From: a virus
Taxonomy: Duplodnaviria > Heunggongvirae > Uroviricota > Caudoviricetes
Direction: 5' to 3' (one strand)
Length of the DNA stretch: 18,346 nt
IMG/VR virus record: IMGVR_UViG_2531839178_000019
Coordinates: 1-18,346 of that record
Below, in pieces: positions 1-18,083 of this stretch. How positions within the stretch are numbered: position 1 is the stretch's first letter; each line of letters begins with the position of its first letter. Below the pieces are notes generated by a model. It did no database searches and was not told the DNA's origin. It saw nothing but the letters and a program-made list of their open reading frames with translations. The position numbers were made by a program, and so were the translations under genes.

Positions 1-378
1 TTACTCAACGTCAAACGCCCGAATTGAAGCCAAATCATCCAGACCGCTCAGCTCCTCTTTCATTTCACGCTGACGGCGATAAATCTCGTCATTGCGCTCA
101 ACCTGTGCCTGAGCCATTGCTGCCGCCAGTTCTTCCAGTTCCGGCATCGACAGTTTCACCTGCTGATTATCCGCATCACTCCACACCATATGTGTTTGTG
201 CCGCGACAGATTTTGCCAGCATGACCACCGGGGACAGGCGGCCCAGTGAGTCGGGGCCAGCATTCCAGATACGACCGTTCCATTCAAACGTGAACGGCTT
301 CGCCTCCTGTTCTGTGCGCCATGCTTCAATTTCCTGACGCCTGGCCTCTCTGGCCGCTTCCAGCATTTCTGGTGTCAC
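1..378 (-). CDS. Putative tail fiber assembly (chaperone)-like protein, C-terminal reading frame; the probable N-terminal segment lies upstream (about 503-563) in another frame
   Basis: ORF ends with TAA at 1-3. It sits directly downstream of the side tail fiber gene, where tfa lies in lambda. No Shine-Dalgarno precedes the in-frame GTG (376-378) or ATG (364-366), whereas the neighbouring frame has GAGGAA-N6-GTG at 561-563. The two frames meet at a 7-nt homopolymer at 496-502. Confidence 0.45.
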   Translation of the reverse strand: MTPEMLEAAREARRQEIEAWRTEQEAKPFTFEWNGRIWNAGPDSLGRLSPVVMLAKSVAAQTHMVWSDADNQQVKLSMPELEELAAAMAQAQVERNDEIYRRQREMKEELSGLDDLASIRAFDVE

Positions 379-573
379 AGTGAATGGGGCTATCTCACCC
401 CATTTGCCGCTTTGCAGTTCCTGCCAGATTTGCTGCCCCGTCGGAGCGACATCATCAGCGGTGGCTGTGTAGGGGACTGCCTGGTCCCTGTCGTCAAAAA
501 AACGTCACAGTCTACTGCGCCACTTTCGGTATAACGGGGATTAATGATTTTTTTAATTTCCACGGTGCATTCC

Positions 574-1989
574 TCACGATGTGCGAATAAAAAGCCCGGG
601 CATTGCGCCAGAGACATGTGCATCCGGCACCCCGGACAGGGCGCAATATGACCCCGGTAATGAATGCTCTGAACATCCCGTAATGAAAAATTGTGGGGAT
701 GCTATATACGTTCCGGTGGGAGTACTGGGCACTGAAATCCCCACCGGTCCCAGTCGTGAGCCTCTGTATGACTGCCCCCTGACAAGTCTGATGACTTTAT
801 CACCGTCAGCTTCTCCCTGGTACGCAGCAATAATCAGCCCGCCAATGTCAGGGTCTCCCCATCTGTTGCGGACAGAGCTCGCCACGATTCTGTAAATAAT
901 ATCTTCTGTGGTTATATTTATTTTCACCCAGCCAGTCAGTCTGGATATGGGCCAGTAGCAGTAGCGGGTGTGATAAATGGGGCCGTTAATGCCGTAAAAA
1001 GTAAGGGATTTGGCTCTGTACCTCGGTTCTGTTGTCTCAGGGCGTGCATCAGTCCACCGGATGCTGAGCACCCCTTCAAACCGTGTGTCGGGTATGATGA
1101 TGTCGTAGGGGCCAGCAACGGAATATTCACCTGGCAGCGCATTCCTTACCCAGGCCAGGAAATCACTCTTAGTGTCAAAACGGATAACATCTTCAGGCAG
1201 AAAAGCACGCCCAAAGCCGAATGCGCCGGGTATCGCCAGACGGCCTTTTGTCCGGTCGTAAATGTCGCTCTGTGCTTCCATCGTGGCCGCACTTTTCAGC
1301 CCCAGATTATCCCGGGACTTCTGTTGTGCCTTTTCGCCTGCTGCTGCGATTTCTGACAGATGGTTAGCCATTTTCAGAGTGCCGGTCAGCGCAGCATCAA
1401 TGTCATTTTTGGCCTGTTCTGCTGCGCGGGCATAACCTGCGGCATCCTGTGCGCTCTGTCCGGCTGCGGCTGCATTTGCTCCTGTGCTTGTCACATCTTC
1501 CGCAGTGGCCTTTCTGTCCTCAGCTGTGACGGTTGCATCCTGTCGGGCTTTCTCCGCAAAACGTTGTGCATCATCACGGGCCGTTGCGGCTGCCGCCACA
1601 TCCTGCGCCGTCTGCTGTGCGTTTCCGGCTGCAGCCCCGGCACTCTGCTGCGCCTGCGCCACCATTTCCTCAAAGCGCTTCATCACCTCCGGACGTAAAT
1701 CACCATCCTTTGGTGCATTCAGAAACGCGTTCAGTGTCCCCGGTGCATCAGTCGGTGCCACATCAATATCCCCGACACGGGTTGGCTGCCAGCCGTTACA
1801 GTGAAGCGCAACCTCGTAATACCCCGGCTCAGCCTCAATCACATAAGCACCGTTATTGTCCGTCACGCAAGTGGCAACAACGTGTGCCACAACGGTCGGA
1901 CTGGTTCTTCTGGCCCGCAGTTCAATCGCACAATTTACGACAGGTTTACCCGCCCCATCTTTCAGTACACCTGAAATCTTTACTGCCAT
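574..1989 (-). CDS. Side tail fiber protein (Stf-like): conserved N-terminal domain, Ala/Gln-rich coiled-coil stalk, divergent C-terminal globular domain
   Basis: 471-aa ORF starting at ATG 1987-1989 (MAVKISGVLKDG...), preceded by GGGGTGA. The first ~100 aa match the N-terminal domain recalled for lambdoid Stf/StfR proteins. The track ORF start at 2031 is an upstream in-frame extension without an RBS. Confidence 0.8.
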   Translation of the reverse strand: MAVKISGVLKDGAGKPVVNCAIELRARRTSPTVVAHVVATCVTDNNGAYVIEAEPGYYEVALHCNGWQPTRVGDIDVAPTDAPGTLNAFLNAPKDGDLRPEVMKRFEEMVAQAQQSAGAAAGNAQQTAQDVAAAATARDDAQRFAEKARQDATVTAEDRKATAEDVTSTGANAAAAGQSAQDAAGYARAAEQAKNDIDAALTGTLKMANHLSEIAAAGEKAQQKSRDNLGLKSAATMEAQSDIYDRTKGRLAIPGAFGFGRAFLPEDVIRFDTKSDFLAWVRNALPGEYSVAGPYDIIIPDTRFEGVLSIRWTDARPETTEPRYRAKSLTFYGINGPIYHTRYCYWPISRLTGWVKINITTEDIIYRIVASSVRNRWGDPDIGGLIIAAYQGEADGDKVIRLVRGQSYRGSRLGPVGISVPSTPTGTYIASPQFFITGCSEHSLPGSYCALSGVPDAHVSGAMPGLFIRTS

Positions 1990-2000
1990 ATTCACCCCAC

Positions 2001-2026
2001 AAAAAGCCCGCCTGAACCAGCGGGCT
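2001..2026 (-). terminator. Rho-independent terminator downstream of lom (minus-strand RNA GCCCGC-loop-GCGGGC followed by UUUUU)
   Basis: Inverted repeat gcccgcc (2006-2012) / gcgggc (2020-2025) with an A-run at 2001-2005 on the plus strand, giving a U-tract on the minus-strand transcript. Confidence 0.6.
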
Positions 2027-2052
2027 GTCATAACACTGTGTTACCTGGCTAA

Positions 2053-2652
2053 TCAGAACTTATAACCGACACCCACGATGAAACCGTCAGTGCGCCAGTC
2101 GCCACTGCCGGAACCTTCATAAGCAAGGTCAATGGCCACGGATTCGGTCGGGTTAAACTGCACGCCAGCCCCCCACGCCAGAGACGTGTTGCTGTGGCGG
2201 TTGTCATCACTCCCGGTCAGCACATCGTGCGTTTTCCCCTTGTTGTCAGTTACGCGGAGATAATCCCCGGAGAAGGTCGACACACGGCTGTAAGCCACGC
2301 CCGCCATCGCATACGCGCTGAACCATTCATTCACGCGCACAGACGGCCCCGCCATCACGCTGAACCAGCGGTTACGCACGGAATCCTCATGCCAGCGGGT
2401 ATCGCTGTAATGCGTTTTTTGCTCATCTTCAGCGTTGGCATAGCTGAATGACGTCACCAGCCCCAGCGTGTCCGTAAACTCATAACGGTATTTCACGTTA
2501 ATGCCCTTCAGGTCATCGCTGCCTGGCATATCAGTATGGGGCTGAAGATACCCGGCGCTCAGCGTGGACTGATGTTCAGACGCCCATGCAGGCGCACCGG
2601 ATACAGCCAGACAGATGGCTGCGGACAAAATGGCTGCACAAACTTTACGCAT
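2053..2652 (-). CDS. lom: Lom family outer membrane protein (Ail/PagC/Lom beta-barrel)
   Basis: 199-aa ORF with a signal peptide (MRKVCAAILSAAICLAVSGAPAWA) and a C-terminus (YEGSGSGDWRTDGFIVGVGYKF) matching lambda Lom as recalled. It lies immediately after J, as in lambda. RBS GAGAGG upstream of ATG 2650-2652. Confidence 0.92.
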   Translation of the reverse strand: MRKVCAAILSAAICLAVSGAPAWASEHQSTLSAGYLQPHTDMPGSDDLKGINVKYRYEFTDTLGLVTSFSYANAEDEQKTHYSDTRWHEDSVRNRWFSVMAGPSVRVNEWFSAYAMAGVAYSRVSTFSGDYLRVTDNKGKTHDVLTGSDDNRHSNTSLAWGAGVQFNPTESVAIDLAYEGSGSGDWRTDGFIVGVGYKF

Positions 2653-2674
2653 AATTACCTCTCGCTTTTCTGCA

Positions 2675-2700
2675 ATAAAAAAGGCACCATTTCTGGTGCC
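2675..2700 (-). terminator. Rho-independent terminator between J and lom (minus-strand RNA GGCACC-AGAAAU-GGUGCC followed by UUUUUUAUU)
   Basis: Perfect 6-bp inverted repeat ggcacc (2683-2688) / ggtgcc (2695-2700) with an A-rich run at 2675-2682 on the plus strand. Confidence 0.65.
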
Positions 2701-2719
2701 CGTATCCGGGTTATAAAAT

Positions 2720-5700
2720 TCAGCTAATCGTGATGCCTGCAGTGGCTTTCTTCATCACAACAACCAGCAAATCGCTGATACTTGCTGTGGGATACCAGCC
2801 ATTTACCAGCCATGCCGATACAGAAAACTCCAGCGTCATGTGACCGTGACCGGCAGGCATATCAATAACACCCGTATATATCAGCGTATTATCCAGGGTC
2901 GTTCGGTTATAAATTTCGGCACCGTTTTTCTTCACTATCAGGCGGCATGACGAATAAATATTGTTATTCTTCCGCTCATGTTTAGCACCGCGAAACGCCA
3001 CCGCGGGAATAACAATTTGCCGATCAAACGGCTGATCGTCATAAACCCTGACGGTAATGGTCCCTGATGGCCACCTCTCCGGTGCCCGGGAGTCCCGTGG
3101 GAAAGGTTTGCCCACTGTTTTAACGAGATCGCCTTCAATCTGGTTCGCGGACAATTTTCCCAGAACCCGACAGTTCTTATTAATCGTGACGTTGTTGAGC
3201 GTCCCGGAGTTCGCGTTCACGTTACCGCTGATATCGGCATTTTTCGCCGTCAGCCGTCCGCCAGGTGTCAGGGAAAATGCCGGAGGATTACCGCCGCTGG
3301 TAATGGTCGGAGCCGTCAGGCGTTTCAGGAACACGTCGTTCATGAATATCTGATCGCCCTGACCAACAAACATCGGCTTTGTGTTGCCATTCGCAGGATT
3401 AATCATCGCAATCCTGTCTGCCGCCAGCAGCACCTGACTCTGCATTCCTGCTGGCGTATTCTCAATACCGGCACCGATACCCGCAATATAAAGGCGTCCG
3501 TCCTTCATCTGTTGCAGCTTCACAGCCCACATGCTGTTCAGGTTATTATTTGTATCAACCTGAACTTTCTGTATCTGCTGGATTGCAGCACTCTGATTTT
3601 CCAGTTTTTTATTGACGGTTTGCGTGATTTCATTGCTGACATTCGTAATGGACGTCCTGATTTCAGTCAGGTCCGGCGCAAGCTGACCGTTATCAATCTG
3701 CGTCCACAACTCCTTGCCGAGATGCGTTTTATTGATCAACCCTTTATAAAAACTCAGATAACCTTCCGCATCATCGCTCGCCCGACCGACGGCCTCCACA
3801 AATGCCGATTTGCCAACGGTGTTCACACTGCGAACGTAAAAATAATAATCATGGCCCGGCCTGATATTGATACTGGCGGCTATCCAGTACAGCGCCGTGC
3901 CAAGATAGCGGGCGCTGGTTTCAACCTGCCTGATATCCGAAATCCGCTTTTCCGAAAACCAGAACTCAAACTGCACCGTCGGGTCATATACAGCCAGTTT
4001 CGGGACCGCCGTTATCTGAAAATACCCCGGTATCAGTTCAATAGTGACAGGCGCTGCCGGTGCCGCAATCCGGAACGATACCGACGCCGGATCGCCCTGC
4101 TGCCCCCGGGCATTTACCGCCCGGACTGTCAGACTGTAATTCCCCAGCGCCAGCTGCCTGAAGCGGTATGTGGTTTCCGTCGTCCTGGCTGTGCTGACCA
4201 GCCGCTCACTGCCGTCGTCCGCTGCCACGGTCAGGCGAAGCAGGAAGCTCACACCCTTCACCACCTTCGGCGTGTCCCATCGCGCCAGCACCTGATATTC
4301 CCCGCTGTCTGCGGTGACTTCGGCGGTCAGATGCTGCACCGCTGGCGGCGTGACACCATTCACCGTGCCGCGCCGGTCACCGTCAAAGTGTGCCCCGTTA
4401 TCCACGATGGCCTCTTTTTCCGGCACATGCTGCACGGCGGTGATGGCATACGTGCCGTCGTCGTTCTCACGGATACTCACGCAGCGGAACAGGCGCTGGC
4501 GCAGCGTCGGCAGCTTCAGCCCCCACACGCTGTATTCTGCAACGCCGTCAGGAACCCGGCTCACTTTCACCTTCACGCCGTCGGTGACGGACTGAACCTC
4601 CACGCTGACCGGATTGCCATTTCCGTCAACCAGGCTTATCAGCGTGGTACCGGAGGACGGCAGCGTGATTTCACGGTCGAGCGTCAGCGTCCGGGTCTGG
4701 CTGTTCACCGCCAGTACGCGACCACCAGTGCTGATACCGGCATAATCATCATCGCAGATTTCAATGACATCACCCGGTACATGGCGAAGCCCTTCTGCGC
4801 CCACGCTGAAGTCCACGGTCTGCGTTTCCAGCAGTTCCGTTTTAATCAGCCACAGCCCGGCGCGGTGCGCCTGTCCCCGGCTGGTACAGCCAAAGGCATC
4901 CATCTTCGTGACGTTACGACCGTAACGGACAATGGCCTGCGTGTCCTCCACAAGCTCTGTCGCCGTCTCATGACCGTTGTCCGGATCAATCCAGTTCACC
5001 TCAACGACATTATGGCGGTCCTTCAGGGCGCTGAAGCTGTAGCGGAACGGCGCGCCATCATCCGGCATCACCACATTACTGCGGTTATAGGTCCACACTT
5101 TATCCGACGGTCGGTCCTGCACGAACGTCAGCGTCTGCCCGTTCCATACCGGCATACAGCGCATCGCCGAGCAGAAATCACTGAGAACATCCCACGCCTT
5201 ACGCTGTGTGGTCAGGTAAGCGTTACAGGTGATGCGCGGCTCCGTGCCGCCAAATCCGTCCGGCACTGACTGGTCGCAGTACTGGCCGATGACATACAGC
5301 GCCCATTTGTCCACATCTGCCGCACCAAGACGTTTCCCCATGCCGTAGCGCGGATGAGTGAGCATGTCCCACAGACACCAGGCCATGTTGTTGCTGTATG
5401 CTGGCTTAAGCGTTCCGTCCCAGATACCGCTGTATTGCCGCGTCTGCGGGTTATAGTTCGACGGCACCTGCAGAATGCGCCCGCGAAGATGATAATTGCG
5501 ACTCACCTGCTGGTTACCGAACTGCTCTGAATCCACCTGCACGCCGACCAGCGCCGTGTTCGGGTAGCACTGTTTCACATCGATGATTTCGGTGTACGAC
5601 GACCAGAGCGTTTTGTTCTGCAGCTGGTCTGTGGTGCTGTCCGGTGTCATCCTGCGCATCCGGATATTAAACGGGCGCGGCGGCAGGTTACCCACCACCA

Positions 5701-6199
5701 CCGAGGCCAGATACTGCGAAGTGGTTTTGCCCTTAATGGTGATGTCTTTTTCCGTCACCCAGCCACCGTTACGCTGTATCTGAACCAGCAGGCGGACTTC
5801 CGACGGATTCCGGTCCCCCTTTGAGGTGGTTTCCACCAGTGCCTGCACACCGAAGGTCAGGCGCAGACGATCAATGTTTGCCGACGTGATGGTCCTGGTG
5901 ATCGGCGTGTCGTATTTCACTTCCGTACCCAGCACAGTCTCTGAGCCGGAAGATTCAAACCCCTCCGGCGGTGTCTGCTCCTGCTCGCCGGCGCGGAACA
6001 CCACCGTAACACCGGAAAAGTTTGTCTTCCCCTCGCTGTCCAGGACCGGCGTACCGTTCAGCAGCACGCTTTTTAATCCATCCACCGGACCGTCAACCGG
6101 CCCTTCGCTGATGGCATCAATCACACTCAGCAACTGCGTGGATTTCAGGTTGTCCTTCGCTTCGCGCGGGGTATGCCCCTTACTGCTGCCTTTACCCAT
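2720..6199 (-). CDS. J: Tail tip / host specificity protein J (central tail fiber)
   Basis: 1159-aa ORF. N-terminus [34 protein letters not shown]... and most of the first ~950 aa match lambda J as recalled; the C-terminal ~200 aa diverge. RBS GAGG upstream of ATG 6197-6199. Confidence 0.95.
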
Positions 6200-6213
6200 T
6201 CCTCACGCTCCAT

Positions 6214-6240
6214 AAACGACAAAACCGCCCGCAGGCGGTT
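6214..6240 (-). terminator. Hairpin with U-rich tail in the I-J intergenic spacer (possible attenuator)
   Basis: 7-bp inverted repeat aaccgcc (6223-6229) / ggcggtt (6234-6240) with a 4-nt loop; the minus-strand transcript continues UUGUCGUUU. Confidence 0.3.
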
Positions 6241-6259
6241 TCACATAAAACATTTTGCA

Positions 6260-6901
6260 TCAGCGACCAATCACCACAACCTGACCACCATCCCCTTCGT
6301 CTGCCGTGCTGATCTCCTGAGATACCACCCGCGACCCCACGCGCATTTCACCGTACAGAACAGGCAGAACATTGCCCTGGGCAACCATGTTATCCAGTGA
6401 GGAGAAACAGGTGTTCTGTTTGCCGTTATCCGTTGTCTGTGTACGGGGAGTTCTGGCTTTCGGTGCCAGCATCTGTGCAACACCGCCAAGCGTCATACTG
6501 GCACCGAGAGAAAACAGCAGATTACTCGCCATAATTCCTACCCCCGGCATCCATATAGCAACCGCCATAACAGCTGCCCCCAGCACCGCCTGAAACACAC
6601 CGCCACTTTTAGCTCCCACCAGACGCGGTACTATGTGGATCACTGCACCATTTGCCAGCGGCTCATTAAGACGGGCAGACAATTCGGTTTCACCTGCATC
6701 ACGCCCGGCAATGCGCACCTGATACCAGCCGTCACTCAGTTTCTGACGAAACGCCGGGAGCTGTGTGGCCAGTGCGCGGATGGCTTCAGCCCCCGTTTTC
6801 ACACGAAGGTCGATGCGGCGGCCAAATCGTTGCAAATCCCCGTAAAGGCAGATGCGTGCCATTCCCGGTGACGCCAGAGGGAGTGTGTGCGTCGCTGCCA
6901 T
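6260..6901 (-). CDS. I: Tail tip assembly protein I
   Basis: 213-aa ORF whose N-terminus (MAATHTLPLASPGMARICLYGDLQRFGRRIDLRVKTGAEAIRALATQLPAFRQKLSDGWYQVRIAGRD) and C-terminus are near-identical to lambda I as recalled. Its 5' end overlaps the 3' end of K in another frame. Confidence 0.95.
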   Translation of the reverse strand: MAATHTLPLASPGMARICLYGDLQRFGRRIDLRVKTGAEAIRALATQLPAFRQKLSDGWYQVRIAGRDAGETELSARLNEPLANGAVIHIVPRLVGAKSGGVFQAVLGAAVMAVAIWMPGVGIMASNLLFSLGASMTLGGVAQMLAPKARTPRTQTTDNGKQNTCFSSLDNMVAQGNVLPVLYGEMRVGSRVVSQEISTADEGDGGQVVVIGR

Positions 6902-7542
6902 TTGTCGGTATACCTCTCTCGTTTACTCAGTTGTTCAGGAATATGGTGCAGCAGCTCACCATCGCCGCAGTAAATGGCGGCATGATTCGGCACCGATGAA
7001 CCAAAACAGCACAGCAGCACATCGCCCGGTTGTGCTGATGACAACGGCACCTGATACAGCCCTGTGGCCTCCAGATTATCCAGATAGAGATTCTGACCGT
7101 GACGCCACCAGTCATCCCCGCGATGAAAATCCGGCATCTCAATCCCCGCCAGATGATAAGCATCCCGGAACAGCGTGTAACAGTCCGTCACCCCGTGCTC
7201 AAAGCGCCGCCCGGTGAGATGCGGCACACAGCGGAACTTGTGAATCGCCCCCCGGCAGACCAGCCACCACGGCAAATCACTCTGCACCTGCAGCCGCCGG
7301 TCAGCCTCACTCAGCCAGGGCAGACCACCGGGATGACTGTGGACCAGTGCCACAATCTCACCCTGCATTTGTGCCCGCAGCCAGTCCTCCGGAGCCATCC
7401 GGAACCGTTCCTCCGGCTCACCGGAGATATTCTCGCTGGGAAGATACCTGTCTCCCTCCGGCGTTCTCACCACGAAGCCACACGACTCCGCTGGCGCACA
7501 TCGCCGGGCGTGCGCCAGAATCGCTGATTCTGTCTGTGTCAT
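6799..7542 (-). CDS. K: Tail tip assembly protein K (JAB/MPN and NlpC/P60-like domains)
   Basis: Start taken at ATG 7540-7542 (MTQTESAILAHARRCAPAESCGFVV...), 4 bp after the L stop. HSHPGG (JAB-like) and Cys/His motifs are present. The track ORF start at 7806 is an upstream non-ATG extension that would overlap L. Confidence 0.9.
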   Translation of the reverse strand: MTQTESAILAHARRCAPAESCGFVVRTPEGDRYLPSENISGEPEERFRMAPEDWLRAQMQGEIVALVHSHPGGLPWLSEADRRLQVQSDLPWWLVCRGAIHKFRCVPHLTGRRFEHGVTDCYTLFRDAYHLAGIEMPDFHRGDDWWRHGQNLYLDNLEATGLYQVPLSSAQPGDVLLCCFGSSVPNHAAIYCGDGELLHHIPEQLSKRERYTDKWQRRTHSLWRHREWHASAFTGICNDLAAASTFV

Positions 7543-7546
7543 GGAT

Positions 7547-8245
7547 TTACTGAGAAAGTTTATTGATGGAAAGGAAACCGCCGAAATTACCGGTATTGTT
7601 GCGCAACTCACACCCGCGCATACACTTGCTGCATTTGTCCTTCCGGATATCCGTCGTTGGTTTGTCGAACTCGTCAGCCACTGCCCTGCCCGTGTAACCA
7701 CACTCATCAGAACGGTAAGTCCACATACAGGTATTCGCCAGCATGATACGCCCCGGGAAAACCGCGCCATCCGTCTCCGTTGGTGTGGCCAGCACAAAAG
7801 AGGCACTGACCGCGCTCAGTTCGCTGCACTGCTCGATGCGCCAGCGGCTGATCACCTCCTGTTCCGGATCGGCGTCGCTGTTTCCGTTGACGAAGTTCAC
7901 CGCATCCAGAAAACGGGCGTAAACCTTACGCCGGACCACCGTTCCGCCGACCAGACTCTGCAGATCTTCCGCCATCCCGGTGACCATGCCGTGCAGGTTA
8001 GAGACCGTCAGTGTCGGACGGGCAGCACAGCCCCTGCCGTTCAGTTCAAACCCCGACCCCTGAATGGGGTATGCCTGATACTGCCGCCCCTGCCAGGTGA
8101 CCGGCTCACCTTTTTCGTTCTGCTCATTACAGAAAAAATAACGCTCACCACCGACCTCTGTCAGATCGATTTCCCAGAGCTCCACCCGGGCTGACTGCTC
8201 CGCACGGGTGCATTCATTCAGTGTTTCCTGCCGGATATCCTGCAT
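7547..8245 (-). CDS. L: Minor tail protein L
   Basis: 232-aa ORF, the same length as lambda L and highly similar as recalled. Its start overlaps the M stop (ATGA). Confidence 0.95.
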   Translation of the reverse strand: MQDIRQETLNECTRAEQSARVELWEIDLTEVGGERYFFCNEQNEKGEPVTWQGRQYQAYPIQGSGFELNGRGCAARPTLTVSNLHGMVTGMAEDLQSLVGGTVVRRKVYARFLDAVNFVNGNSDADPEQEVISRWRIEQCSELSAVSASFVLATPTETDGAVFPGRIMLANTCMWTYRSDECGYTGRAVADEFDKPTTDIRKDKCSKCMRGCELRNNTGNFGGFLSINKLSQ

Positions 8246-8574
8246 CAGTTCACCACCTGTTCAAAATCGGCCGTTACAGTCACCCATAACGCCCCCACGC
8301 TTGCCGACCATTTACGACAAACCACCCTGATCAGTTTCCAGTCATAAGGTGGCGTCCACTGAAATGCGCGGACGCCACCGTGCCGTTCCAGAAAGGCTTT
8401 TAAAGATGGGTGTTCACCTTTACGAACACGTATCGTCACGCTGTAAGTCGACAACTGGTTATTCAGTCCCGCCGCACGACGCTGTTCATAACCATCGCCC
8501 AGCTTCACTGTCACCACTTTCGGCTCTGATACCACATTCATATCCGGGCGCACTTTCCAGTGAAACGTCTCCAT
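8245..8574 (-). CDS. M: Minor tail protein M
   Basis: 109-aa ORF matching lambda M in length and sequence (…GDGY.QR…FEQVVN). Its ATG shares one base with the H stop codon (TAATG). Confidence 0.95.
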   Translation of the reverse strand: METFHWKVRPDMNVVSEPKVVTVKLGDGYEQRRAAGLNNQLSTYSVTIRVRKGEHPSLKAFLERHGGVRAFQWTPPYDWKLIRVVCRKWSASVGALWVTVTADFEQVVN

Positions 8575-11500
8575 TACCGGTATGCTCCACTTAACCGGCC
8601 ACCATCACGGGCCTGCTGTTGCATAAAGTCCGCGGCCGCTTTTTTCCCGAGGTCATAAACCACCTTCAGGGCAGCCGGACCTATCTGCCCGTTCGTGCCG
8701 TCGTTATTGATCTCAATGTTGTACTGCGGGGCAAACATCACCATGCCTGAACCACCAGTATCCGCCACAACCCCCAGCTTACCATCAGCACCGCGACGCA
8801 GTGGCAGAATGGCTTCAGGTCCCGCTTCCCCCATCACACCCGCGCCTTTTGCAAAAGCAAAAAACGTCGGACGGTTAACCACCGTGCCACTGTAGCGACT
8901 CAAATCAGCAGACTGGTAAACACCGCCATCAGCATTAGTCGTGAAGCCGAATAAAGAACCGACGCCCTTTACCGCCTGCATCATGGCCATCTGTGCCATA
9001 ATTCTGGCCATATCTGACAACAGGGAAGAGGTGAAGGATTTAAAATTCAGCTTACCGGTGGTACAGAATGTCGCCAGTGCATTACCGGCACTGCTGAATG
9101 CCACTGTAAACATCTGTTCTGCCGTTCCCGCCGCATTATCCGCATCCGCCGTAAAATTCTGAAACGCCCGCATGGCACCGTTTTTCCAGTCGCCCTGCGC
9201 CACTTCCAGTTCCTGCCAGTAGCGTTTGTTTTCATTCAGTTGTCGCTTCAGGCTCCCCTTCAGCACCTCCTCAGCCCTCCGGTAGTCCTCCGTCCCGTAA
9301 GTGCCTTTCTGGCGACTGTCATTCTCAAGCTGTTGCAACTGTTGCCGGTATTCCTGCCGGATGCGCAACTGTGCCTGGTAGCGCTGCCGCTGCTTATCCC
9401 CCATACCTGCAGTGGCAATATCCAGATTGTGCTGCTCACGCAGTGCACGTTCTTTGTCTGCCAGCTGGCTGGTCAGCTGAACCGTTTTTTTCTCAGGTCG
9501 TTAAGCGCTGTCTGTTTCTGCAGCTCCTGCTGTTTCACATCCAGCAGCGTCAGCGCCTGAATCAGCTCATTCTTACGGGCCAGCACACTCTTTTCATCTG
9601 CCGTCAGCTTTTTCCCGTCCAGGTCGCTGATGCGCTGCTGCAGGGCCAGAAGCTGTTTATGCGCTTCAGTCATCCTTTCAGTGGCAATGCCTGCTGACTG
9701 TCTGGCAGCAGCAATCTGCCCTTCCACCTGTGCCTGCTGCTGACTGTACTGCAGCAATAACCGGGTGGCCTCATCATTACGGGTTGCCCGTGTATTTTTC
9801 TTAATGGCTTTTTCGTAACGTTCATTTTCACGCTGTATCGCCGCATCCCTGACAGCCTGGTCGGCGTACTGCATGGCATTAATACGCGCAATTTCCCGCT
9901 GATGTCGTGCAGCTTCCGTTTCATTCATCCGGTTCAGCGCGGCATTTTCAGCATTCCGGCGTTTCTGTTGCTCCTGGTAATTCCGTTCTGCCTGCGCTTT
10001 TGCATCCTGCAAATCCTTCCGGCGTTTTTTCTCCTGAAGATCGTTAAGACGCTGCTGATCGTACTCCACCTGTGTGGAGGCGTTTGTCCACGGATATTTT
10101 TTCGCGCGCTGAATTTTTTCCTGTAACGCATCAATCTGCGCATCCAGCGAGTCTTCACGACCAATATTCATGGCCGCATCCCAGAACTGCTTCCACCAGT
10201 CAGACAAGGTTTGCAGCGTACTACCCAGCGCATTGAGATTATTATCAATATCAGATGTGCGTTTACCGGTTTCCTCTGCCAGCGCAGACATGGCGATCCG
10301 GGCCGCATCACTGGACCGCCCCTGCTCCCCAAGGACGCGTATCTGCTCAAGCTGAGTGGCAGTCAAAAAATGCAGCGCATTGTCCAGCGCCTTCGCGGCA
10401 TTTACAGGATCATCCTTCAGCCGCTTAAACTGATTTATGGTATCGCTGACCGACTGGCCAACCGATCGCTCCATCTGTGCGGCAGCTTTCGCCACCATAC
10501 CAATATCGTTTCCATGAAATGCCCCACTGCCCACCACCTGTGCCAGCGCACCGGCTGCCGCATGTTGCGTGATACCATTCCCGGATATGGCCCGGCTGAG
10601 TTTCCACAACTGCCCGACAGTGACACCGGCATAATGTCCCGTCAGCGCCAGCTGACGGTTAAATTCCTCGCCCTCCTTCCGGCCGTCATGCCAGGCTTTA
10701 CCCAGACCCAGGACCGCCGCGACAAGTCCGCCAATAACGCCGCCAGTCATCATGCCTTTCGGCGACATCAGTGCGCCTGTCCATCCGGCACGGTTAGCCA
10801 GCGTTATCCCGGATCCCCTCAGCGCACCAAAATTGCCGCGCGCCATCTGACTGATTAACACCCCCAGCTCCCGCCGGGCTGCCGCACTTTTCAGCCCCAG
10901 CGAATGTGTGGCTTTTCCTGCCCGCTCCATTTTGCGGATATACACTTCTGCAGCACTGCTTACCCCCAGCTGAGCCGCCCTGGCGCGAAGCAACTCAGAA
11001 GACGACAGATTCTGGCGGGTTGCCTGCTCTTTAAGCTGGCGGATAAACGCCGCTTTCTGCCGGGTGGCCTGTTCCTCTGCCTGCGTCAGGGCACGGGTTT
11101 TCGCCGTGATCTCCGAAATCAGCGCCAGATAATCCTGCTGACCAACCCCGCCACTGTTTCTGGCCTGTCGGATCTGCTGCTGAATACGCTGTAATTCCTG
11201 AAGCCCCGCACCGGCCTGTTTCACACTGTCAATCTGGCGATAAAAGGCGGCAGCCGCTTTATCCTGCGCCTCCGCCAGTGCCCTGGCCTGCGCCTGTTCC
11301 TCGCGCATTTTCTGATTCAGGGCATCCACGCGCAGACGGGTTTGTTCCACCTCACGGGCCATGCGTTCATGAGCCCGTGCATTCTTCTCCACCGTCTGCG
11401 CATGGGCTGATGCTGCTGTTGCAGCCGAAGAAGCCGCCTGCATTGTCTGCCGGGCCGCCTGAGTCTGACGCTCCATAAAACGCTGCATACGGGCAGAAGA

Positions 11501-11614
11501 CCGTTCTGCATCGCTGGCTGCACCATTCAGAAGGTTTTTGATACGGGGAATTTCATTTTTAAACTCTGCCGCATCAATCCCCAAATCAATGACCAGGTTG
11601 GCTATCTGGTCCAT
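8574..11614 (-). pseudogene. H: Tail tape measure protein H, reading frame interrupted at an A7 tract (coding strand; plus-strand T7 at 9485-9491)
   Basis: N-terminal ORF from ATG 11612-11614 (MDQIANLVIDLGIDAAEF..., RBS GGAGGTG) stops at 9473-9475. The C-terminal 276-aa ORF (8574-9404) ends ...NNDGTNGQIGPAALKVVYD..., matching the lambda H C-terminus as recalled, and its frame is open upstream back to 9500. The two frames meet exactly at the A7 run. Confidence 0.85.
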
Positions 11615-11915
11615 AACGCACACCTCCGGAAATACCTTCCCCAAGATGCATCAGTTCTTCGTCCGTTCGCTCCGGTATCCCGTTCTCTTCCGGTAAAAGG
11701 CTGAAATCAGCCACCGCAGCATCGCTGCTGCCGGACACCATTCTCACGATCAATGCCTTCAGCGAGGCAAACTGCGCATCCATCCACACATCACTGAAGC
11801 TCTGCATCCGGAAATAATCGCCCCACTCACCAAGCTCAGTGGCCGACATATCCGACAGCATCCGCCGCCAGTCTGCCCGCCGGAACTCCCGGGCAAGCCG
11901 CATGACAAACTGCAT
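11586..11915 (-). CDS. T: Tail assembly protein T, the -1 frame extension expressed as the G-T fusion
   Basis: 109-aa ORF in the -1 frame relative to G; its frame is open upstream to 11948 and overlaps the G 3' end. G-T-H gene order as in lambda. Confidence 0.8.
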   Translation of the reverse strand: MQFVMRLAREFRRADWRRMLSDMSATELGEWGDYFRMQSFSDVWMDAQFASLKALIVRMVSGSSDAAVADFSLLPEENGIPERTDEELMHLGEGISGGVRYGPDSQPGH

Positions 11916-11923
11916 TTCCCGCG

Positions 11924-12310
11924 TCAGGACTTTTCCGGCGTCAGCGCCTCATGATCATCATCCCCGGCATTCTCAATGGTCCCCATACCGCTCAGCGACA
12001 GAACCCTCTCCGCCCCCGCGCCCAGCGCATCATACGACCATGTTGTCATAATGGATGCGCAAAGCGTCTCAACATCCTGAGACTGCTCAGCATTCCACAG
12101 TGAGCGGGAAACCAGCCAGGCATTGATATCCATTCCCATACGCAGAAAAGCAATCTGTCGTTCAGCCTCCGGCAGTTCTCCCTCCTGTGCATCAAACTTT
12201 GCCGTTCGCTGCTGAACAAACGTCAGATATTCAATTCTCTGCAGCCCGGACAGCTCACTGAGCACCACGGACTGTTTTTCATAATTAAACGTATCCTGTT
12301 TCAGAAACAT
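11924..12310 (-). CDS. G: Tail assembly chaperone G
   Basis: Start taken at ATG 12308-12310 (MFLKQDTF...SELSGLQRIEYL), resembling the lambda G N-terminus (MFLK...SELSALQRIEHL) as recalled. GGAG lies 6 nt upstream. Confidence 0.85.
   Translation of the reverse strand: MFLKQDTFNYEKQSVVLSELSGLQRIEYLTFVQQRTAKFDAQEGELPEAERQIAFLRMGMDINAWLVSRSLWNAEQSQDVETLCASIMTTWSYDALGAGAERVLSLSGMGTIENAGDDDHEALTPEKS
11930..11936 (-). other. Putative -1 ribosomal frameshift site for the G-T fusion (coding strand G_GAA_AAG)
   Basis: This is the only slippage-prone sequence inside the 33-nt G/T frame overlap (11916-11948). The lambda site recalled is G_GGA_AAG. Confidence 0.5.
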
Positions 12311-12325
12311 CATGTTCTCCGGATG

Positions 12326-12349
12326 CAAAAAGCCCCGGATAACCGGGGC
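12326..12349 (-). terminator. Rho-independent terminator/attenuator between V and G (minus-strand RNA GCCCCGG-UUAU-CCGGGGC followed by UUUUU)
   Basis: Perfect 7-bp GC-rich inverted repeat (12332-12338 / 12343-12349) with an A-run at 12327-12331 on the plus strand. Confidence 0.65.
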
Positions 12350-12368
12350 AATGATGAGTATCGTCCTG

Positions 12369-13052
12369 TTATGGTGCGCTGACGGTCACCGCAGCCACTG
12401 CCACAAACTCTCCGTCAGAGGTCATGCCCACGATGCTGACACTGCCCTGCTTCACGCCTTTCACCGTGGCCACAAGCCCGCTCAGGGTCACCGAAGCAGT
12501 CTGAGGATCTGACGAATGCACACTGATCGCTTTGACACTGACAGATGCCGGTGCCACCGTCAGTCCGGTAACACCCACGGTTTCAGCGCCCTCCTCTGCC
12601 AGATACGGACGCCCCACACCGCTGATTTTTACAGTACGGGTCATCACCTCTTTTGAGGTAATGGTTTTACCCAGAGAACTCAGCCAGCCACGGAAAACAT
12701 CAACCGTACCGTTGGGGTATTTGATACGAAACGCGCAGACTTCACCGGAATCGAACAACTGAACCAGTTTTTTCTGCCCGCTGTCACCCGGACGCCAGGC
12801 CAGCGTCGCCAAAGTATCACCGACGGATTTCTGCCCCTGGGTTGTCGTTTTCCAGTCTGCATCTTCATCATCGAGATAAGTGTCATCTTCTGCATCAGCG
12901 GTCATTTCGCCAGGTTGCAGATCCTTCACCATCGCAAGACGCAGCCAGTCAGTGTCCGACAAAGGGTTCGCAAACGCATCGCCCTTGCCGGTGTACATCC
13001 AGAACGTCGTTCCCGCACCTTTCGTTTTTGCCAGTGGATTTGGTGTGGTCAT
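12369..13052 (-). CDS. V: Major tail protein V
   Basis: Start taken at ATG 13050-13052 (MTTPNPLAKTKGAGTTFWMYTGKGDAFANPLSDTDW...), homologous to lambda V as recalled. Strong RBS AAGGAGGT 6 nt upstream. The track start at 13127 is an upstream extension overlapping U. Confidence 0.92.
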   Translation of the reverse strand: MTTPNPLAKTKGAGTTFWMYTGKGDAFANPLSDTDWLRLAMVKDLQPGEMTADAEDDTYLDDEDADWKTTTQGQKSVGDTLATLAWRPGDSGQKKLVQLFDSGEVCAFRIKYPNGTVDVFRGWLSSLGKTITSKEVMTRTVKISGVGRPYLAEEGAETVGVTGLTVAPASVSVKAISVHSSDPQTASVTLSGLVATVKGVKQGSVSIVGMTSDGEFVAVAAVTVSAP

Positions 13053-13062
13053 TGCCACCTCC

Positions 13063-13476
13063 TTAATTCGTGTACGTGATCTGGTACGTGATTTCCGCCA
13101 TCGCCCAGGTGGCCATCTCATTATCACGTTGATAGTTAAAACCGAGTGGGTTCATGGTGTCGATGAGTCCGGAAAATGCAGGTACATCATTCAGGGCCGG
13201 GAAAATGGTGCTCTCCATCCACATATCCAGCTCTGAATCCGGTGCCTGTGCCCGGATGAAGACGGCAATATGCAGAACAGCCTGCCAGTCATCTTCATCC
13301 GTCATTTTTCCGGTGTACTGAGCATCACTCAGCCACACCGCCACGGCAGGCAGTTCCTGCGCATCAATAAATGCCGGAAGCCCGTCAAAAAACGTGGCGC
13401 TGTCTCCACACTGTTCCCGAAGGCGTGCCAGTACGACCTGGCGGATCTGTGTATGTCGGTTCATCGGGTCAGCCAT
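13063..13476 (-). CDS. U: Minor tail protein U (tail terminator)
   Basis: 137-aa ORF with ...ATFFDG.PA..D..E.PAVAV.L....YTG......W...LHI.VF..AQ.PDSELD.WMES..., matching lambda U as recalled. Confidence 0.9.
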   Translation of the reverse strand: MADPMNRHTQIRQVVLARLREQCGDSATFFDGLPAFIDAQELPAVAVWLSDAQYTGKMTDEDDWQAVLHIAVFIRAQAPDSELDMWMESTIFPALNDVPAFSGLIDTMNPLGFNYQRDNEMATWAMAEITYQITYTN

Positions 13477-14045
13477 AACCTCAGTTGTTGTTTCAGTGCA
13501 TACCCCAGCTGTTTCGGCATTTCCGCAGCAATGATGCGGTCGCGGGCATCTTCAAATGCCTGTGTCAGCGGTCCGGACAGCGGGATTTTCACCACATCAA
13601 TGGGGTAACGATTTTTGCCGTCAATACGCCGCATCACATGCCAGCGACCATTCGCCAGTTGCTGAATAAACGCATCCCGGAAAAGGTATTTCCCCACTTT
13701 CAGTACGCTGCCACGATGACGTGAGTTGCTGCCATGCCGGGAGCGGGCCAGTCTGACCTGTGCGGTACCCAGCTTAATGGCGGGCAGGTTACCCCGGTTA
13801 ACACGCATGCGGGCATACATTTTTCCTGAGGGGCTGGCTTTAAGCAGCCTGACACGCTCCCTGACCGTTTTCAGGGGAATACCTTTCACCTGGTTATCCC
13901 CGGCAACGGTATTCTGCGCAACCTGCCGTGTGGCGACAGAAATAATCTTTGCCGCCACACGGTTTACCGCCCATGCGCTGGCCTGTGGCACCATGCGGGT
14001 ATCGAGGCTGTTCAGATTATGGATGGCATTCTCAAGCCCCTTCAT
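13461..14045 (-). CDS. Z: Tail completion protein Z
   Basis: 194-aa ORF (MKGLENAIHNL...FIQQLANGRWHVMRRIDGKNRYPIDVVKIP...LGYAL), homologous to lambda Z as recalled. RBS AGAGGTG. Overlaps the U start. Confidence 0.85.
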   Translation of the reverse strand: MKGLENAIHNLNSLDTRMVPQASAWAVNRVAAKIISVATRQVAQNTVAGDNQVKGIPLKTVRERVRLLKASPSGKMYARMRVNRGNLPAIKLGTAQVRLARSRHGSNSRHRGSVLKVGKYLFRDAFIQQLANGRWHVMRRIDGKNRYPIDVVKIPLSGPLTQAFEDARDRIIAAEMPKQLGYALKQQLRLWLTR

Positions 14046-14056
14046 CCCACACCTCT

Positions 14057-14332
14057 TTACTCAATAAAGATCATTGGTTTACCGTTAAAGCGTTCATGCC
14101 GTGTGACCGTCCATTGTTGTCCGTCATAAACAACGCGGTCCCCGCGCCGTGGGCGGTATCCCGAAGAAAACACCACCAGAGAGACCGCCGGTCCGGACAG
14201 AGCGTTCAGCTCTGCCAGAGTTTCTCCCGGGAGCACAGGCATATAAACATCATTAATCGAGGCCATCTTTCCCATCTTTCTGACCGTGATCGCATCCATA
14301 CGCGCTGCCTGCCGGGAAAAGGGATCAGACAT
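14057..14332 (-). CDS. Head-tail joining protein (FII-like)
   Basis: 91-aa ORF directly upstream of Z; the C-terminal segment ...RRGDRVVYDGQQWTVTRH... resembles the lambda FII ...RRGDTLTIGEENFWVDRV... region as recalled. Confidence 0.6.
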   Translation of the reverse strand: MSDPFSRQAARMDAITVRKMGKMASINDVYMPVLPGETLAELNALSGPAVSLVVFSSGYRPRRGDRVVYDGQQWTVTRHERFNGKPMIFIE

Positions 14333-14648
14333 TGAGTTTTACCGGCACTTCTTCTGCACCAGCTCCGGCATCTGCCCAGACAACCCCGACCAGCGGATCA
14401 GAGCCGCTGTTAGTCAGCTGAACTTTTCCGGACTTCAGAAAAACCTTCTTACCCGTTTTCATGTCATCCGTTTTCAGCTTAGGCAGCATAAACACACCTT
14501 CGGTCAGGCCGTCGCCTGTTTCACCCTGTGGAATATCGGTCAGCGCCACCGCAAAAACATCACCCACCTGCACCAGATCTCCGCTGCTGATGGCTGCACT
14601 GGCAACAATCGCCACCGTTTTTCCTTCTTCTACAAAATTCTTTGCCAT
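14325..14648 (-). CDS. DUF2190-like phage structural protein (possible head decoration/cement)
   Basis: Start taken at ATG 14646-14648 (MAKNFVEEGKTVAIV...), GGAGA 5 nt upstream. Size (~107 aa), the Gly/Val-rich pattern and position next to the capsid gene fit this family. The track start at 14693 is an upstream extension. Confidence 0.6.
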   Translation of the reverse strand: MAKNFVEEGKTVAIVASAAISSGDLVQVGDVFAVALTDIPQGETGDGLTEGVFMLPKLKTDDMKTGKKVFLKSGKVQLTNSGSDPLVGVVWADAGAGAEEVPVKLNV

Positions 14649-14691
14649 AACTGTCTCCGCACAGCCCCGTTCAGGGGCTGATTTCAGGTAC

Positions 14692-14710
14692 AAAAAAAGC
14701 CCTTACGGGC
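14692..14710 (-). terminator. Hairpin (GCCC-GUAA-GGGC) followed by U7 downstream of the capsid gene; a second 6-bp hairpin (14664-14680) follows without a U-tract
   Basis: Short GC stem with a GNRA-type loop at 14699-14710 and an A7 run at 14692-14698 on the plus strand; lies between the capsid stop (14735) and the next start (14648). Confidence 0.45.
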
Positions 14711-14734
14711 CATCAGAGTTGTTGTCTGCGACGT

Positions 14735-16535
14735 TTACGCCGTACATTTCACCAGGCCGCGGTGATCAACTGGCGCAACACCGGCGTCAATACGCACTTT
14801 CGTTGTCACGCCATCCACACTGAAGCCCTCCATCTGATCAATATATGGCGTATCCACACCGTTGAGATAAGCCACTTCAATCGTATCGGAGCCTTTGGAC
14901 GCAGCCAGGTAGAAGGTGGTCTGGCTGTTATCATCAAGACGAGGCTCTGCAATAACGGTCGCAAAATCTTTCACCGGGTTAATAATACCGGCGTTAATGT
15001 CAGCCCCCTTGACACTTGAGGAGCGAATGACCTGGTTAGCAACAGACTCCATCGCCGTCGGTACCAGTACGAACGCAGGACGAATATTCAGATGACGCTC
15101 CCCCTCTTTCTGAACACGCATCAACTGGCGGGCTTTATCCAGCGATGCCACGTCCATTGCAGCGCTCTCCAGTACGTTTGCATGTTTCGCTTTATCGAAC
15201 AGACTTACATTATCTGTGGAGATTTTCGGGTTAGACGTCAGAATGGCATAAACCAGATCGGCAATAGTGGATTTCGCCGCACGGCCCAGTTTCATCGGGA
15301 CATCGGTCAGCATATTCAGATCATCGTTGATAATGGCCTGACGGGTGATACTGAACAGTTCACCATAGGTCGCCAGTGCAATCGTGGCCTGTTTATCTCC
15401 GGTAGTAACGTATTTATATTCCGCCCCTTCACGCACCTGACGCAGAGCACTGAAGCCCCCCATACCCACACGATGGGCAATTTTAAAATCAGACAGCTGA
15501 CCTTTCCGCGTCCACTGTTCATAGGTTTCAGGGGCATCTTCCCAGCCCTGCAGAATGGCTTTGTTCGCAACATCCAGCAGAATATTACCGAAGTCAGACG
15601 TACTGTGTGTGAACGCCGCACCGACCATCTGCATCGGGTTATAACCGGAAACCCCAATACCCCGTTCAGTCAGTGACATACGGGCATATTCACGCAGGGT
15701 CATCCCGTTGTAGACATTATCACGTTCAGTTTTTTCAAACCCGGCACGCGCCATCAGCGCCTGGCGGATCCCGTCCCCCACAAAATTACCGTTTCCGGCA
15801 TAAATATGGGCCGGGGTATTTTTATTTGATGGTGAAAATTCCTTACCCATTTCGTTAAGTAATTTCTCACGGGCCTGCTCAAGCGAGCACTCCGGCTCGG
15901 AAAGACAACTGGCCTGCAATGTCTGATAACGCCCGCCAAACATACCAAACAGTTCATTAATACCACTCACACGTGCTTTTTGCTCTGCCAGTACCTGCGC
16001 ACGGATACTGCTTTCATCTGCGGAAGGTGCATTTGTGGTGGTCACGGTTGTGGCAACCTGAGCCGTAGTCTGCTCCTGTGTCTGAGATGCAGTATTTTTG
16101 TTTTCAGGTTCACGCGTTGCACTGTTGCGTGGCGGAGTAATCATGTTTCGAATGGATTCCGGCATCTTTTTAAATTCCTCTGTACGTTTTGACTGAATAC
16201 ATGCCATTGCCTTAACGGCTGGCGTCACCTGATCAGCAAATCCATGTGCCAGACATTCGGCACCGGACATCCAGGTCTCATCCGCCAGCATGGCAGCAAC
16301 TTCATCGGTGGTTTTCCCGGTTTTCTGTGCATAAGCGGGTAACAGAACCGCCTCAACTTTATCGAGCAGGTCGGCATAGGTGCGCATGTCCTCCGCATCA
16401 CCGCCCGTAAAGCCAAATGGTTTATGAATCATCATGAAGGTGTTTTCCGGCATAATGACCGGGTTTCCCACCATCGCAATGACCGACGCCATTGATGCCG
16501 CCACACCGTCAACATAAACGGTAATGGACGCACCA
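14735..16535 (-). CDS. Prohead protease (ClpP/S49-like, C-terminal part) - scaffold linker - major capsid protein fusion; 5' end truncated by IS600
   Basis: Long ORF with the peptidase motif ...VYVDGVAASMASVIAMVG... near its 5' end, a Thr/Gln-rich linker and a capsid-like C-terminal domain. The reading frame runs upstream into the IS600 terminal sequence, so the track start at 16561 is a GTG inside the IS. Confidence 0.6.
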
Positions 16536-16862
16536 TGAGGTAGCCTGAGTTTAACGGACACTCCTTCCTGAAATAGAATGGCATCAGAAGGAGCTAATAA
16601 TGAGCAGAAAAACCCAACGTTACTCTAAAGAGTTCAAAGCCGAAGCTGTCAGAACGGTTCTTGAAAATCAACTTTCGATCAGTGAAGGCGCTTCCCGATT
16701 ATCCCTTCCTGAAGGCACTTTAGGACAATGGGTTGCCGCCGCCAGAAAAGGGCTCGGTACTCCTGGTTCCCGCACGGTGGCTGAACTGGAATCTGAAATT
16801 CTGCAACTGCGTAAGGCGTTAAATGAAGCTCGCCTTGAGCGAGATATATTAAAAAAAGCAAC
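16536..16862 (+). mobile_element. IS600-like (IS3 family) element, left ~327 bp only, interrupted by IS30
   Basis: Begins TGAGGTAGCCTGAG... about 64 bp before the orfA ATG (16600-16602), a layout typical of IS3-family left ends. The orfA product MSRKTQRYSKEFKAEAVRTVLENQLSISEGASRLSLPEGTLGQWV... matches IS600 OrfA as recalled. The left boundary is approximate. Confidence 0.7.
16600..16862 (+). pseudogene. IS600 orfA, 5' fragment (first ~88 codons), truncated by the IS30 insertion
   Basis: The helix-turn-helix OrfA sequence stops making sense after ...LERDILKKAT at the IS30 terminus (16863); the track ORF to 16950 reads through into the IS30 inverted repeat. Confidence 0.8.
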
Positions 16863-18083
16863 TGTAGATTCAATCTGTCAATGCAACACCCCTTTCAATT
16901 ATCTCTTTCGGTGTTTTGAACTTCAGTGTCTTTCTCGGTCTGTTGTTTAGCTGAGCAGCAACCAGATCTAGTTCATGTTGAGTATATTGGGCAAGACATG
17001 TCTTTTTAGGAAAGTACTGCCGAATTAGCCCATTTGTGTTCTCATTTGTTCCCCGCTGCCAAGGACTCTGAGGATCGCAGAAGTAAACTTTAACGCCGGT
17101 GCTGACAGTAAATTCTAGATGTCTGGCCAGTTCCATTCCTCTGTCCCATGTCAGCGATTTTCTGAGTTCTGACGGTAAACTCAGGAATTTGTCGGTAAGA
17201 GCCTGATTTACTGAGACAGTAATCTTTGCCCCTGAGTCTAAGGATGATCGTATAACGTGATTTTCGGTCTACAAGTGTGGCTATATGAGAGTTTTTGTAC
17301 CTGAGACTAAATCGCCCTCCCAATGCCCCAGAGAGCGTCTGTTATCGATATTTCGGGAACGTTCGTGAATTGGTGTTCCGTTCACTATGTTAATCGTACC
17401 TCTTTCGCCTTTGCGGGTATGACGCCTGCCATGGCGAAGGCTATGCGACCGTCGCAGATGCTGTATATTCAGGTGGTGTAGCGCTTCACGGCTACGAAAG
17501 TACAGCGTTTTATAAATTGTCTCAGGTGATATTCGCAGCGTTTTTTGACGTGGTTTTGTTCGCCTTAACCATCCTGATATTTGCTCTGGAGACCATTTCA
17601 TCTCCAGCTTTTCCAGAACAAGCTTTCGCAATGGTAAATTTTGATCCAGTAAGCACGGTTTTGGCCTTTTCGCCATTCTGTTGGCTCGGTTATTAGCATC
17701 AACAGCTTTGTAATAGCGTCTGCCCCGATTACGCTGAACTTCACGTGAGATCGTCGAAGGACTGCGATTCAGCGCAGTAGCTATCGCACGAATGCTCATT
17801 TTGGCTGACAAACCAGCTCGTATCTCCTCGCGCTCAGACAGTGTCAGGTGAGCTACAGCCCGCTTACGCTCATGGGGTTTTATGCCGCCAGTATCCCTTA
17901 ACATAGTGAAGATCGTTCCGGGTTTTGAACCCAGGATATTCGCTATTTCACTGAAGCCTGTTCCGTTCTTCCATAGTTCAAAAACAGAGGCTTTTTCCTC
18001 TGCTGTAAATGTTCGTCTCATTCAAAAAACCTCCGCGACCCCATGTTTTCACATAACTGTTGCGTTGACCAATTGAATCTACA
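16863..18083 (-). mobile_element. IS30, complete length (1221 bp) with imperfect ~25-bp terminal inverted repeats
   Basis: Termini TGTAGATTCAATCTGTCAATGCAAC (16863-16887) and reverse complement of 18059-18083, TGTAGATTCAATTGGTCAACGCAAC. Encodes an IS30-family DDE transposase on the minus strand. Confidence 0.9.
16870..18021 (-). pseudogene. insI: IS30 transposase, split into three ORFs by two compensating 1-bp indels
   Basis: ORFs 17281-18021 (MRRTFTAEEKASVFELWKNGTGF..., HTH), 17090-17323 (...NSHIATLVDRKSRYTIILRLRGKD...) and 16870-17136 (MELARHLEF...DPQSPWQRGTNENTNGLIRQYFPK...) together read as one IS30 transposase as recalled. Frame changes occur near the T5 run at 17292-17296 and near 17220. 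Confidence 0.8.

Follow-up and report, generated by a model that had tools for sequence, protein, structure and literature searches.

The viral DNA analysed here, referred to as the window, is the stretch of 18,346 nucleotides (nt) covering positions 1 to 18,346 of IMG/VR record IMGVR_UViG_2531839178_000019; its minus strand carries a side tail fibre gene, stf. With a probability that we put at about three in four, stf belongs to a lambda-like siphovirus prophage of the Shigella/enteroinvasive E. coli (EIEC) type and encodes its trimeric, Stf-like side tail fibre, with a lambda-type N-terminal anchor, a tip composed of a junction and two modules (A and B), and a DUF4376 protein as its partner. 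The C-terminal ~250 amino acids (aa) are most likely the receptor-binding end. To judge by its sequence, this tip is a different module from tips of the lambda or gp37 type; it is not an orphan either, being assignable to an already catalogued, recurrent and uncharacterised fibre-tip family. The cassette formed by the tip and the DUF4376 gene sits behind three unrelated fibre anchors.

The features of the fibre and its partner are, in window coordinates:

574..1989, minus strand: stf, side tail fibre gene, 471 aa from MAVKISG, stop codon at 574-576
1594..1989, minus strand: N-terminal anchor, aa 1-132 (PF08400)
1405..1593, minus strand: stalk rich in Ala, Gln and Asp, aa ~133-195, assigned by composition (Ala-rich over aa 93-230)
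1210..1404, minus strand: junction, aa ~196-260, LKxxNxLSEIA..AQQxSRDNLGLKSAA..QSDIYDRTxGRLAxPGAFGFG
910..1209, minus strand: module A, aa ~261-360, predicted knob-like alpha/beta domain
577..909, minus strand: module B, aa ~361-471, predicted distal head domain
583..603, minus strand: predicted terminal beta-strand MPGLFIR, aa 463-469, family motif GLFxRxA
1..563, minus strand: DUF4376 (PF14301) gene, presumed cognate tail-fibre chaperone, PF14301 E-value 1.3e-17, frameshifted

The three-part anatomy of the tip was derived from the domain table of the family profile and from identities calculated per segment. Residues 220-471 correspond to nt 574-1330. The minus-strand open reading frame (ORF) spans 574..2031, and homology favours a start at nt 1989 (MAVKISG); RefSeq likewise gives a length of 471 aa for the E. 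coli VL40 gene, which is 99.8% identical. The 14 additional upstream codons at 1990-2031, up to an ATG at 2031 (MTARWFRRAFCGVN), find no support among the homologues.

Relatives of the fibre tip

Searched at full length, the protein matches phrog_2636, annotated as "tail fiber protein", with an E-value of 2.3e-217, and the C-terminal 251 aa alone match the same profile at 1e-107, over profile positions 311-567 of 568. By tblastn, homologues of the tip with 31-35% identity were found in phiP27 (L56), Av-05, Rac-SA53, SerU-LTIIb and an Actinobacillus phage, with a partial homologue in Goslar; all of these phage proteins are annotated as tail fibres. In a word-indexed search of proteins, 118 relatives came up in E. 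coli, Shigella, Citrobacter and Salmonella; their anchors are PF08400, PF12571 or T4-like repeat regions. The family is small: an exhaustive profile search yielded 138 matches (100 of them below 1e-10) among 1.84 billion cluster representatives of 50% identity clusters. Most members come from E. coli/Shigella prophages and a few from phages. The exact variant of the window is present at full length in 9 of the 5426 complete E. coli genomes, while the anchor part has matches in 3215. The variant is common among Shigella/EIEC entries, with several clusters comprising more than 1600 member sequences.

Residues 220-471 have no match in Pfam or NCBIfam, and the tip matches no PDB sequence, whether searched as a single protein or as a 13-sequence family profile. 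Comparison with the C-terminal part of lambda Stf (orf-314) by BLASTP gave no significant similarity, the best local alignment (E-value 0.071) being a 25-residue low-complexity match. That part of lambda Stf carries Collar (PF07484), the His/Gly-rich Phage_fiber repeat (PF03335) and Phage_fiber_2, and the lambda chaperone is Caudo_TAP (PF02413); in Pfam searches, all four were found in lambda and none in the window Stf or its downstream gene. An earlier note on this DNA had described the C-terminal part as unlike familiar tips and as lacking their Gly-rich repeats, and both points stand; at 10.3%, the Gly content is somewhat high, but without repeats.

The same note called the tip rich in aromatic residues, Cys and Pro, which is true in part. 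Aromatic residues make up 11.1% and Pro 6.7% of the segment, apparently slightly more than the roughly 8% and 4% of typical E. coli proteins. Cys is not enriched, with three residues in 252 (1.2%). Conserved disulfides formed by these three residues were considered and dropped: in the alignment of 40 sequences, the best-kept tip Cys, C439, is shared by 11, and no Cys reaches a majority.

Modular organisation of the tip

Across fibres with unrelated anchors (PF12571 "tail-collar" fibres of Mu/P2-like prophages), the junction is the best-conserved segment, with 66-77% identity versus 22-52% in modules A and B; Gly255, Gly258 and Gly260 are invariant. The junction is thus likely to be the point where modules are exchanged. 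Module A occurs in one to three tandem copies in longer fibres and is also present without module B. In nearly every match that carries module B, its end coincides with the last residue of the protein or lies next to it; a few proteins have B without A. The identities of the two modules vary independently among the homologues (41% for A and 63% for B in P0042; 52% and 38% in P0045), which points to shuffling between the modules too. An origin of the two modules by duplication was considered and dropped, as hhalign detects no sequence relation between A and B (probability 0.7%).

The most variable columns of module B are at aa ~415-445 and ~454-463, between the invariant motifs GSRL, LPGxYxALSG and GLFxR. 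Module B is the proposed receptor-binding tip. The C-terminal motif is the best conserved of the family, with Leu466 and Phe467 nearly invariant and Arg469 invariant. What had been taken for an unusual hydrophobic tail (AMPGLFIRTS) turns out to be this conserved GLFxRxA motif, predicted to be a structural beta-strand. A role as a membrane or anchor element was rejected, given the conserved motif and the confident strand in the model described below. All three peptides quoted in the earlier note are present in the translation. Its suggestion of a different receptor-binding module survives insofar as the tip differs from lambda and gp37 tips and is likely the receptor-binding end; the tip is not, as supposed, a single domain, since it comprises two modules and a junction, nor is it rare or an orphan, since it belongs to PHROG 2636.

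Predicted structure of the tip

The tip was modelled with AlphaFold2 as a monomer (aa 240-471), using the 40-sequence alignment. The model has a mean predicted local distance difference test (pLDDT) score of 89.2 and a predicted template modelling (pTM) score of 0.67. It contains two alpha/beta domains, each with a single helix and then five or six strands, and residues 463-469 are modelled as a confident beta-strand. The first ~20 modelled residues, including PGAFGFG, are of low confidence; this junction segment may fold only in the trimer.

Fold comparison suggested a likeness to the knobs of the R2 pyocin fibre (PDB entries 6CL6/6CU2) and to the C-terminal domains of staphylococcal receptor-binding proteins (RBPs), namely those of phi812 (9EUF, chain 5) and phage K gp144 (5M9F). 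An earlier, weaker model matched the same set of proteins. When compared with the predicted viral structures of BFVD by Foldseek, convincing matches were limited to family members (Av-05 and Goslar), the others being generic fibre proteins with template modelling (TM) scores of 0.2-0.3. Taken as a whole, the modelled fold would fall into the broad class of phage fibre knob/RBP domains, apparently with no close relative among solved structures. Searches of the PDB by sequence, profile and fold produced none of the clear full-length homology to a characterised tip domain that the earlier note had named as a refutation.

Anchor and stalk

At the other end of the protein, PF08400 (prophage tail fibre N-terminal) covers aa 2-132 with an E-value of 2e-48, above the Pfam gathering score. 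Identity to lambda Stf is 50% over residues 1-121, and residues 1-92 match the lambda Stf collar domain, PDB entry 9e7m chain Ta (E-value 3.6e-22), a chain with the same sequence as lambda Stf residues 1-92. The N-terminal likeness to lambdoid Stf proteins noticed earlier is therefore well founded. In the Ur-lambda cryo-electron microscopy paper, which cites 9E7M, 12 copies of Stf residues 1-94 form a collar round the tail tip, touching gpV and gpM, and flexible linkers run from the collar to four trimeric coiled-coil fibres; lambda Stf binds OmpC, speeding adsorption (PMC12617516).

Residues 93-230 contain 28% Ala, 9% Gln and 9% Asp, in agreement with the Ala/Gln/Asp-rich stalk of the earlier note. 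This composition fits a lambda-like stalk, which by analogy would be a trimeric coiled coil. In near-identical Shigella/E. coli proteins (P0001 and P0007), the stalk has been shortened in frame by 49 and 42 aa (window ~1405-1700, aa ~97-195); the length of the fibre, or of its stalk, therefore differs between strains.

The DUF4376 partner gene

A DUF4376 gene of ~190 aa lies directly downstream of the tip-bearing fibre gene in all seven loci examined: the window, E. coli VL40, E. coli CFSAN029787, phiP27 (L57), Av-05 (gp077), a Mu/P2-like prophage and a Vequintavirinae-like metagenomic contig. The chaperones are 35-77% identical along their whole length. By alignment with four homologues, the gene of the window probably starts at a GTG at 563, 10 nt past the stf stop codon and preceded by GAGGAA. 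A RefSeq-style start (MHMSLAQ..., window 563-623; L001:7409-8032), which implies a 50-nt overlap with stf, was discarded, the same alignment favouring the GTG.

Members of the DUF4376 family have been studied in other phages. In Alteromonas phage V22, the DUF4376 protein gp27 is required for a functional fibre and absent from the mature fibre (PMC7289586), and in Campylobacter CJIE1-like prophages a downstream DUF4376 gene must be co-expressed for a functional fibre to form (PMC7882524). The fibres of V22 and A5 have been modelled as a stem, one or more knobs and a head, with knob duplication and a likeness to R-pyocin knobs; AlphaFold models further suggest that DUF4376 chaperones are transient "caps" resembling C-terminal intramolecular chaperone domains (PMC10579305).

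In Mu/P2-like prophages (L004 and L005) and in phiP27 (L002), two pairs of fibre and chaperone genes follow one another in the same orientation; Caudo_TAP belongs to the first pair, and the present tip and DUF4376 to the second.

Prophage context

Two further genes lie upstream of stf:

2053-2652, minus strand: lom, Ail/Lom outer-membrane protein gene (PF06316, E-value 2e-128)
2720-6199, minus strand: J, central fibre gene

The gene order J, lom, stf and small assembly gene matches that of phage lambda, with stf lying after J and lom at the end of the tail operon. In related E. coli genomes (L001, L007, L008 and L009), the stf-DUF4376 cassette closes the phage part, with cargo or host genes coming next. 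It is followed by ipaH type III secretion system effector genes in three of the four relatives checked and by sitABCD in VL40. In CFSAN029787, the tape-measure segment matches at 4.15 Mb and the stf segment at 0.37 Mb; these different chromosomal positions indicate that the prophages are mosaic. At the far end of the window, a transposase-like ORF (17281-18021; phrog_4646, E-value 5e-36) lies beyond an ORF fusing head protease and capsid (14735-16561). In its match to phrog_133, this fusion ORF aligns only from profile position 75 onwards, which may mean a truncated head gene or just a different start.

Integrity of the window copy

Two genes of the window are broken. The DUF4376 gene has lost one nucleotide, having seven T residues at 496-502 where E. 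coli VL40 has eight, and it is intact in the four related genomes checked (VL40, CFSAN029787, O121 and FDAARGOS_943). The tape-measure gene (8574-11644, minus strand) is split into ORFs of 723 and 276 aa by a run of seven A residues at 9485-9491; E. coli CFSAN029787 has eight and a single coding sequence of 3042 nt there, and the gene is intact in related complete genomes. The two losses may reflect decay of the prophage, which is common in Shigella and EIEC, or sequencing errors in homopolymers.

It is a serious, if doubtful, possibility that the window holds a relic: a defective prophage whose intact fibre gene is no longer assembled into virions and serves at most as spare parts for recombination with incoming phages. 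Besides the two broken frames, this would fit the transposase-like ORF adjoining the head protease/capsid ORF, whose profile match sets in only at position 75, the interruption of gpJ by an internal stop in the related O121 genome, and the many Shigella entries in which the Stf protein is partial. However, both frameshifts are single-base losses in 8-nt homopolymers, a typical signature of sequencing error. Furthermore, stf itself is unbroken, with 97-99.8% identity among nine complete E. coli genomes; in all four of those nine for which annotation was retrieved, the chaperone is intact too. A relic would in any case bear on the state of the window copy and not on the nature of the module.

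Points weighing against a functional side tail fibre, and against the details of our account of it, can be gathered here. With the chaperone and tape-measure genes both frameshifted, this copy may make no working fibre. We found no literature on a receptor, on binding or on virion incorporation for any member of the tip family. The structural model comprises a single chain of what is presumably a trimer, which qualifies the modelled fold. Finally, the VL40 and phiP27 chaperones are 77% identical, while the corresponding tips share 34%; being far better conserved than the tips, the chaperone cannot be matched to their variable surfaces. What it recognises is probably the invariant framework, possibly at the terminal strand, and not the variable loops.

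Proposed roles of the two modules and of the partner

The strict co-occurrence of the tip and the DUF4376 gene could also be read the other way round, with the DUF4376 protein as the actual adhesin, staying on the fibre end like Mu Tfa or T2-type gp38, and module B as its docking platform. Mu Tfa is reported, as cited in PMC7289586 and PMC7882524, to be bound to the fibre tip and to remain there, and the invariant motifs GSRL, LPGxYxALSG and GLFxRxA of module B could form a conserved docking surface. This arrangement is improbable, as the pattern of conservation is the opposite of that expected of a host-range determinant: the chaperone is the conserved partner (35-77% identity), and it is the tip that diverges, to ~32-35%. 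In addition, the DUF4376 protein of V22, gp27, did not co-elute with the mature fibre (PMC7289586).

The position of module B almost always at the very C-terminus, together with the existence of A without B, would also be expected if module B acted as an intramolecular chaperone or cap and, as happens in the T5 pb1 fibre and K1F endosialidase, were removed by cleavage once the trimer had formed, leaving module A as the exposed receptor-binding knob. The published likening of DUF4376 chaperones to transient caps (PMC10579305) lends this idea some plausibility. We consider it even less probable than an adhesin role of the DUF4376 protein. Neither Peptidase_S74 (the PF13884-type auto-cleaving C-terminal domain, searched in the window Stf at E ≤ 1) nor any other Pfam match was found for the module, and a separate chaperone gene is already there. 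The hypervariable loops of module B are what one expects of an exposed surface, and no conserved Ser/Lys dyad was seen, although no search was aimed at one. An enzymatic tip, for instance one with glycan depolymerase or esterase activity, in place of one that simply binds is very unlikely: the alpha/beta modules of ~100 aa are far smaller than beta-helix depolymerases, and no catalytic family is matched in Pfam, NCBIfam or PDB sequences.

We therefore keep to module B as the candidate receptor-binding part of a lambda-like side tail fibre, for which the following course of events may be envisaged. Twelve copies of the anchor would form a collar and fix four trimeric fibres to the tail tip, by analogy with Ur-lambda. 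The Ala-rich stalk, as a coiled coil, would space the tip away from the tail. Going by the DUF4376 proteins studied so far, the partner would promote the assembly of the tip into trimers, beginning at the C-terminus. Module B, being exposed and variable, could then bind a surface receptor of E. coli or Shigella and speed adsorption before J engages its own receptor, a step for which lambda Stf and OmpC may serve as a model. On an evolutionary timescale, homologous recombination at the conserved junction would allow siphovirus and myovirus fibres to exchange the cassette of tip and chaperone.

Side tail fibres set the adsorption speed and the strain range of lambda-like phages and of lambda-derived delivery particles. 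Chimeric Stf tips have reportedly already been used to retarget such particles. The natural junction, the small conserved chaperone and the concentration of variants in Shigella/EIEC prophages make the present tip a practical candidate for retargeting. As no Pfam model covers modules A and B, the family also marks a gap in the domain databases.

Comparison with known fibres

Among the closest known systems is Stf/Tfa of lambda (Ur-lambda), which shares the PF08400 collar domain, the position after J and lom, the Ala-rich stalk and a chaperone gene immediately downstream. The two differ in what follows the stalk. In lambda, the tip is composed of Phage_fiber_2, Collar and the His/Gly-rich Phage_fiber, binds OmpC and is paired with Caudo_TAP; here, it consists of the junction with modules A and B and is paired with DUF4376.

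The Alteromonas fibres (V22 gp26/gp27 and A5 gp8/gp9) resemble the present one in having DUF4376 directly downstream, in the order of knob or knobs followed by a distal head, with the number of knobs varying by duplication, and perhaps in their structural likeness to the knobs of R-pyocin fibres. They have other anchors and other hosts, and their dependence on the chaperone has been demonstrated, whereas here we infer it. By sequence, tblastn with the fibre and the chaperone returned no Alteromonas phage at E ≤ 1e-5.

With L56/L57 of the Stx2e phage phiP27, Rac-SA53, the SerU-LTIIb stf and Av-05 gp076/gp077, the likeness extends to homology over the whole tip (97-99% coverage) and to the DUF4376 partner, and phiP27 L56 also has a PF08400 anchor. 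The L56 locus of phiP27 has baseplate genes, and Av-05 is classified in the Vequintavirinae. Tip identity to the phage members of PHROG 2636 is only about 31-35%, and the 32-35% identity of the tips suggests a different specificity. This is ordinary modular phage biology: the tip behaves as modular fibre tips are known to, and adds one more case to the well-known exchange of fibre tips together with their chaperones.

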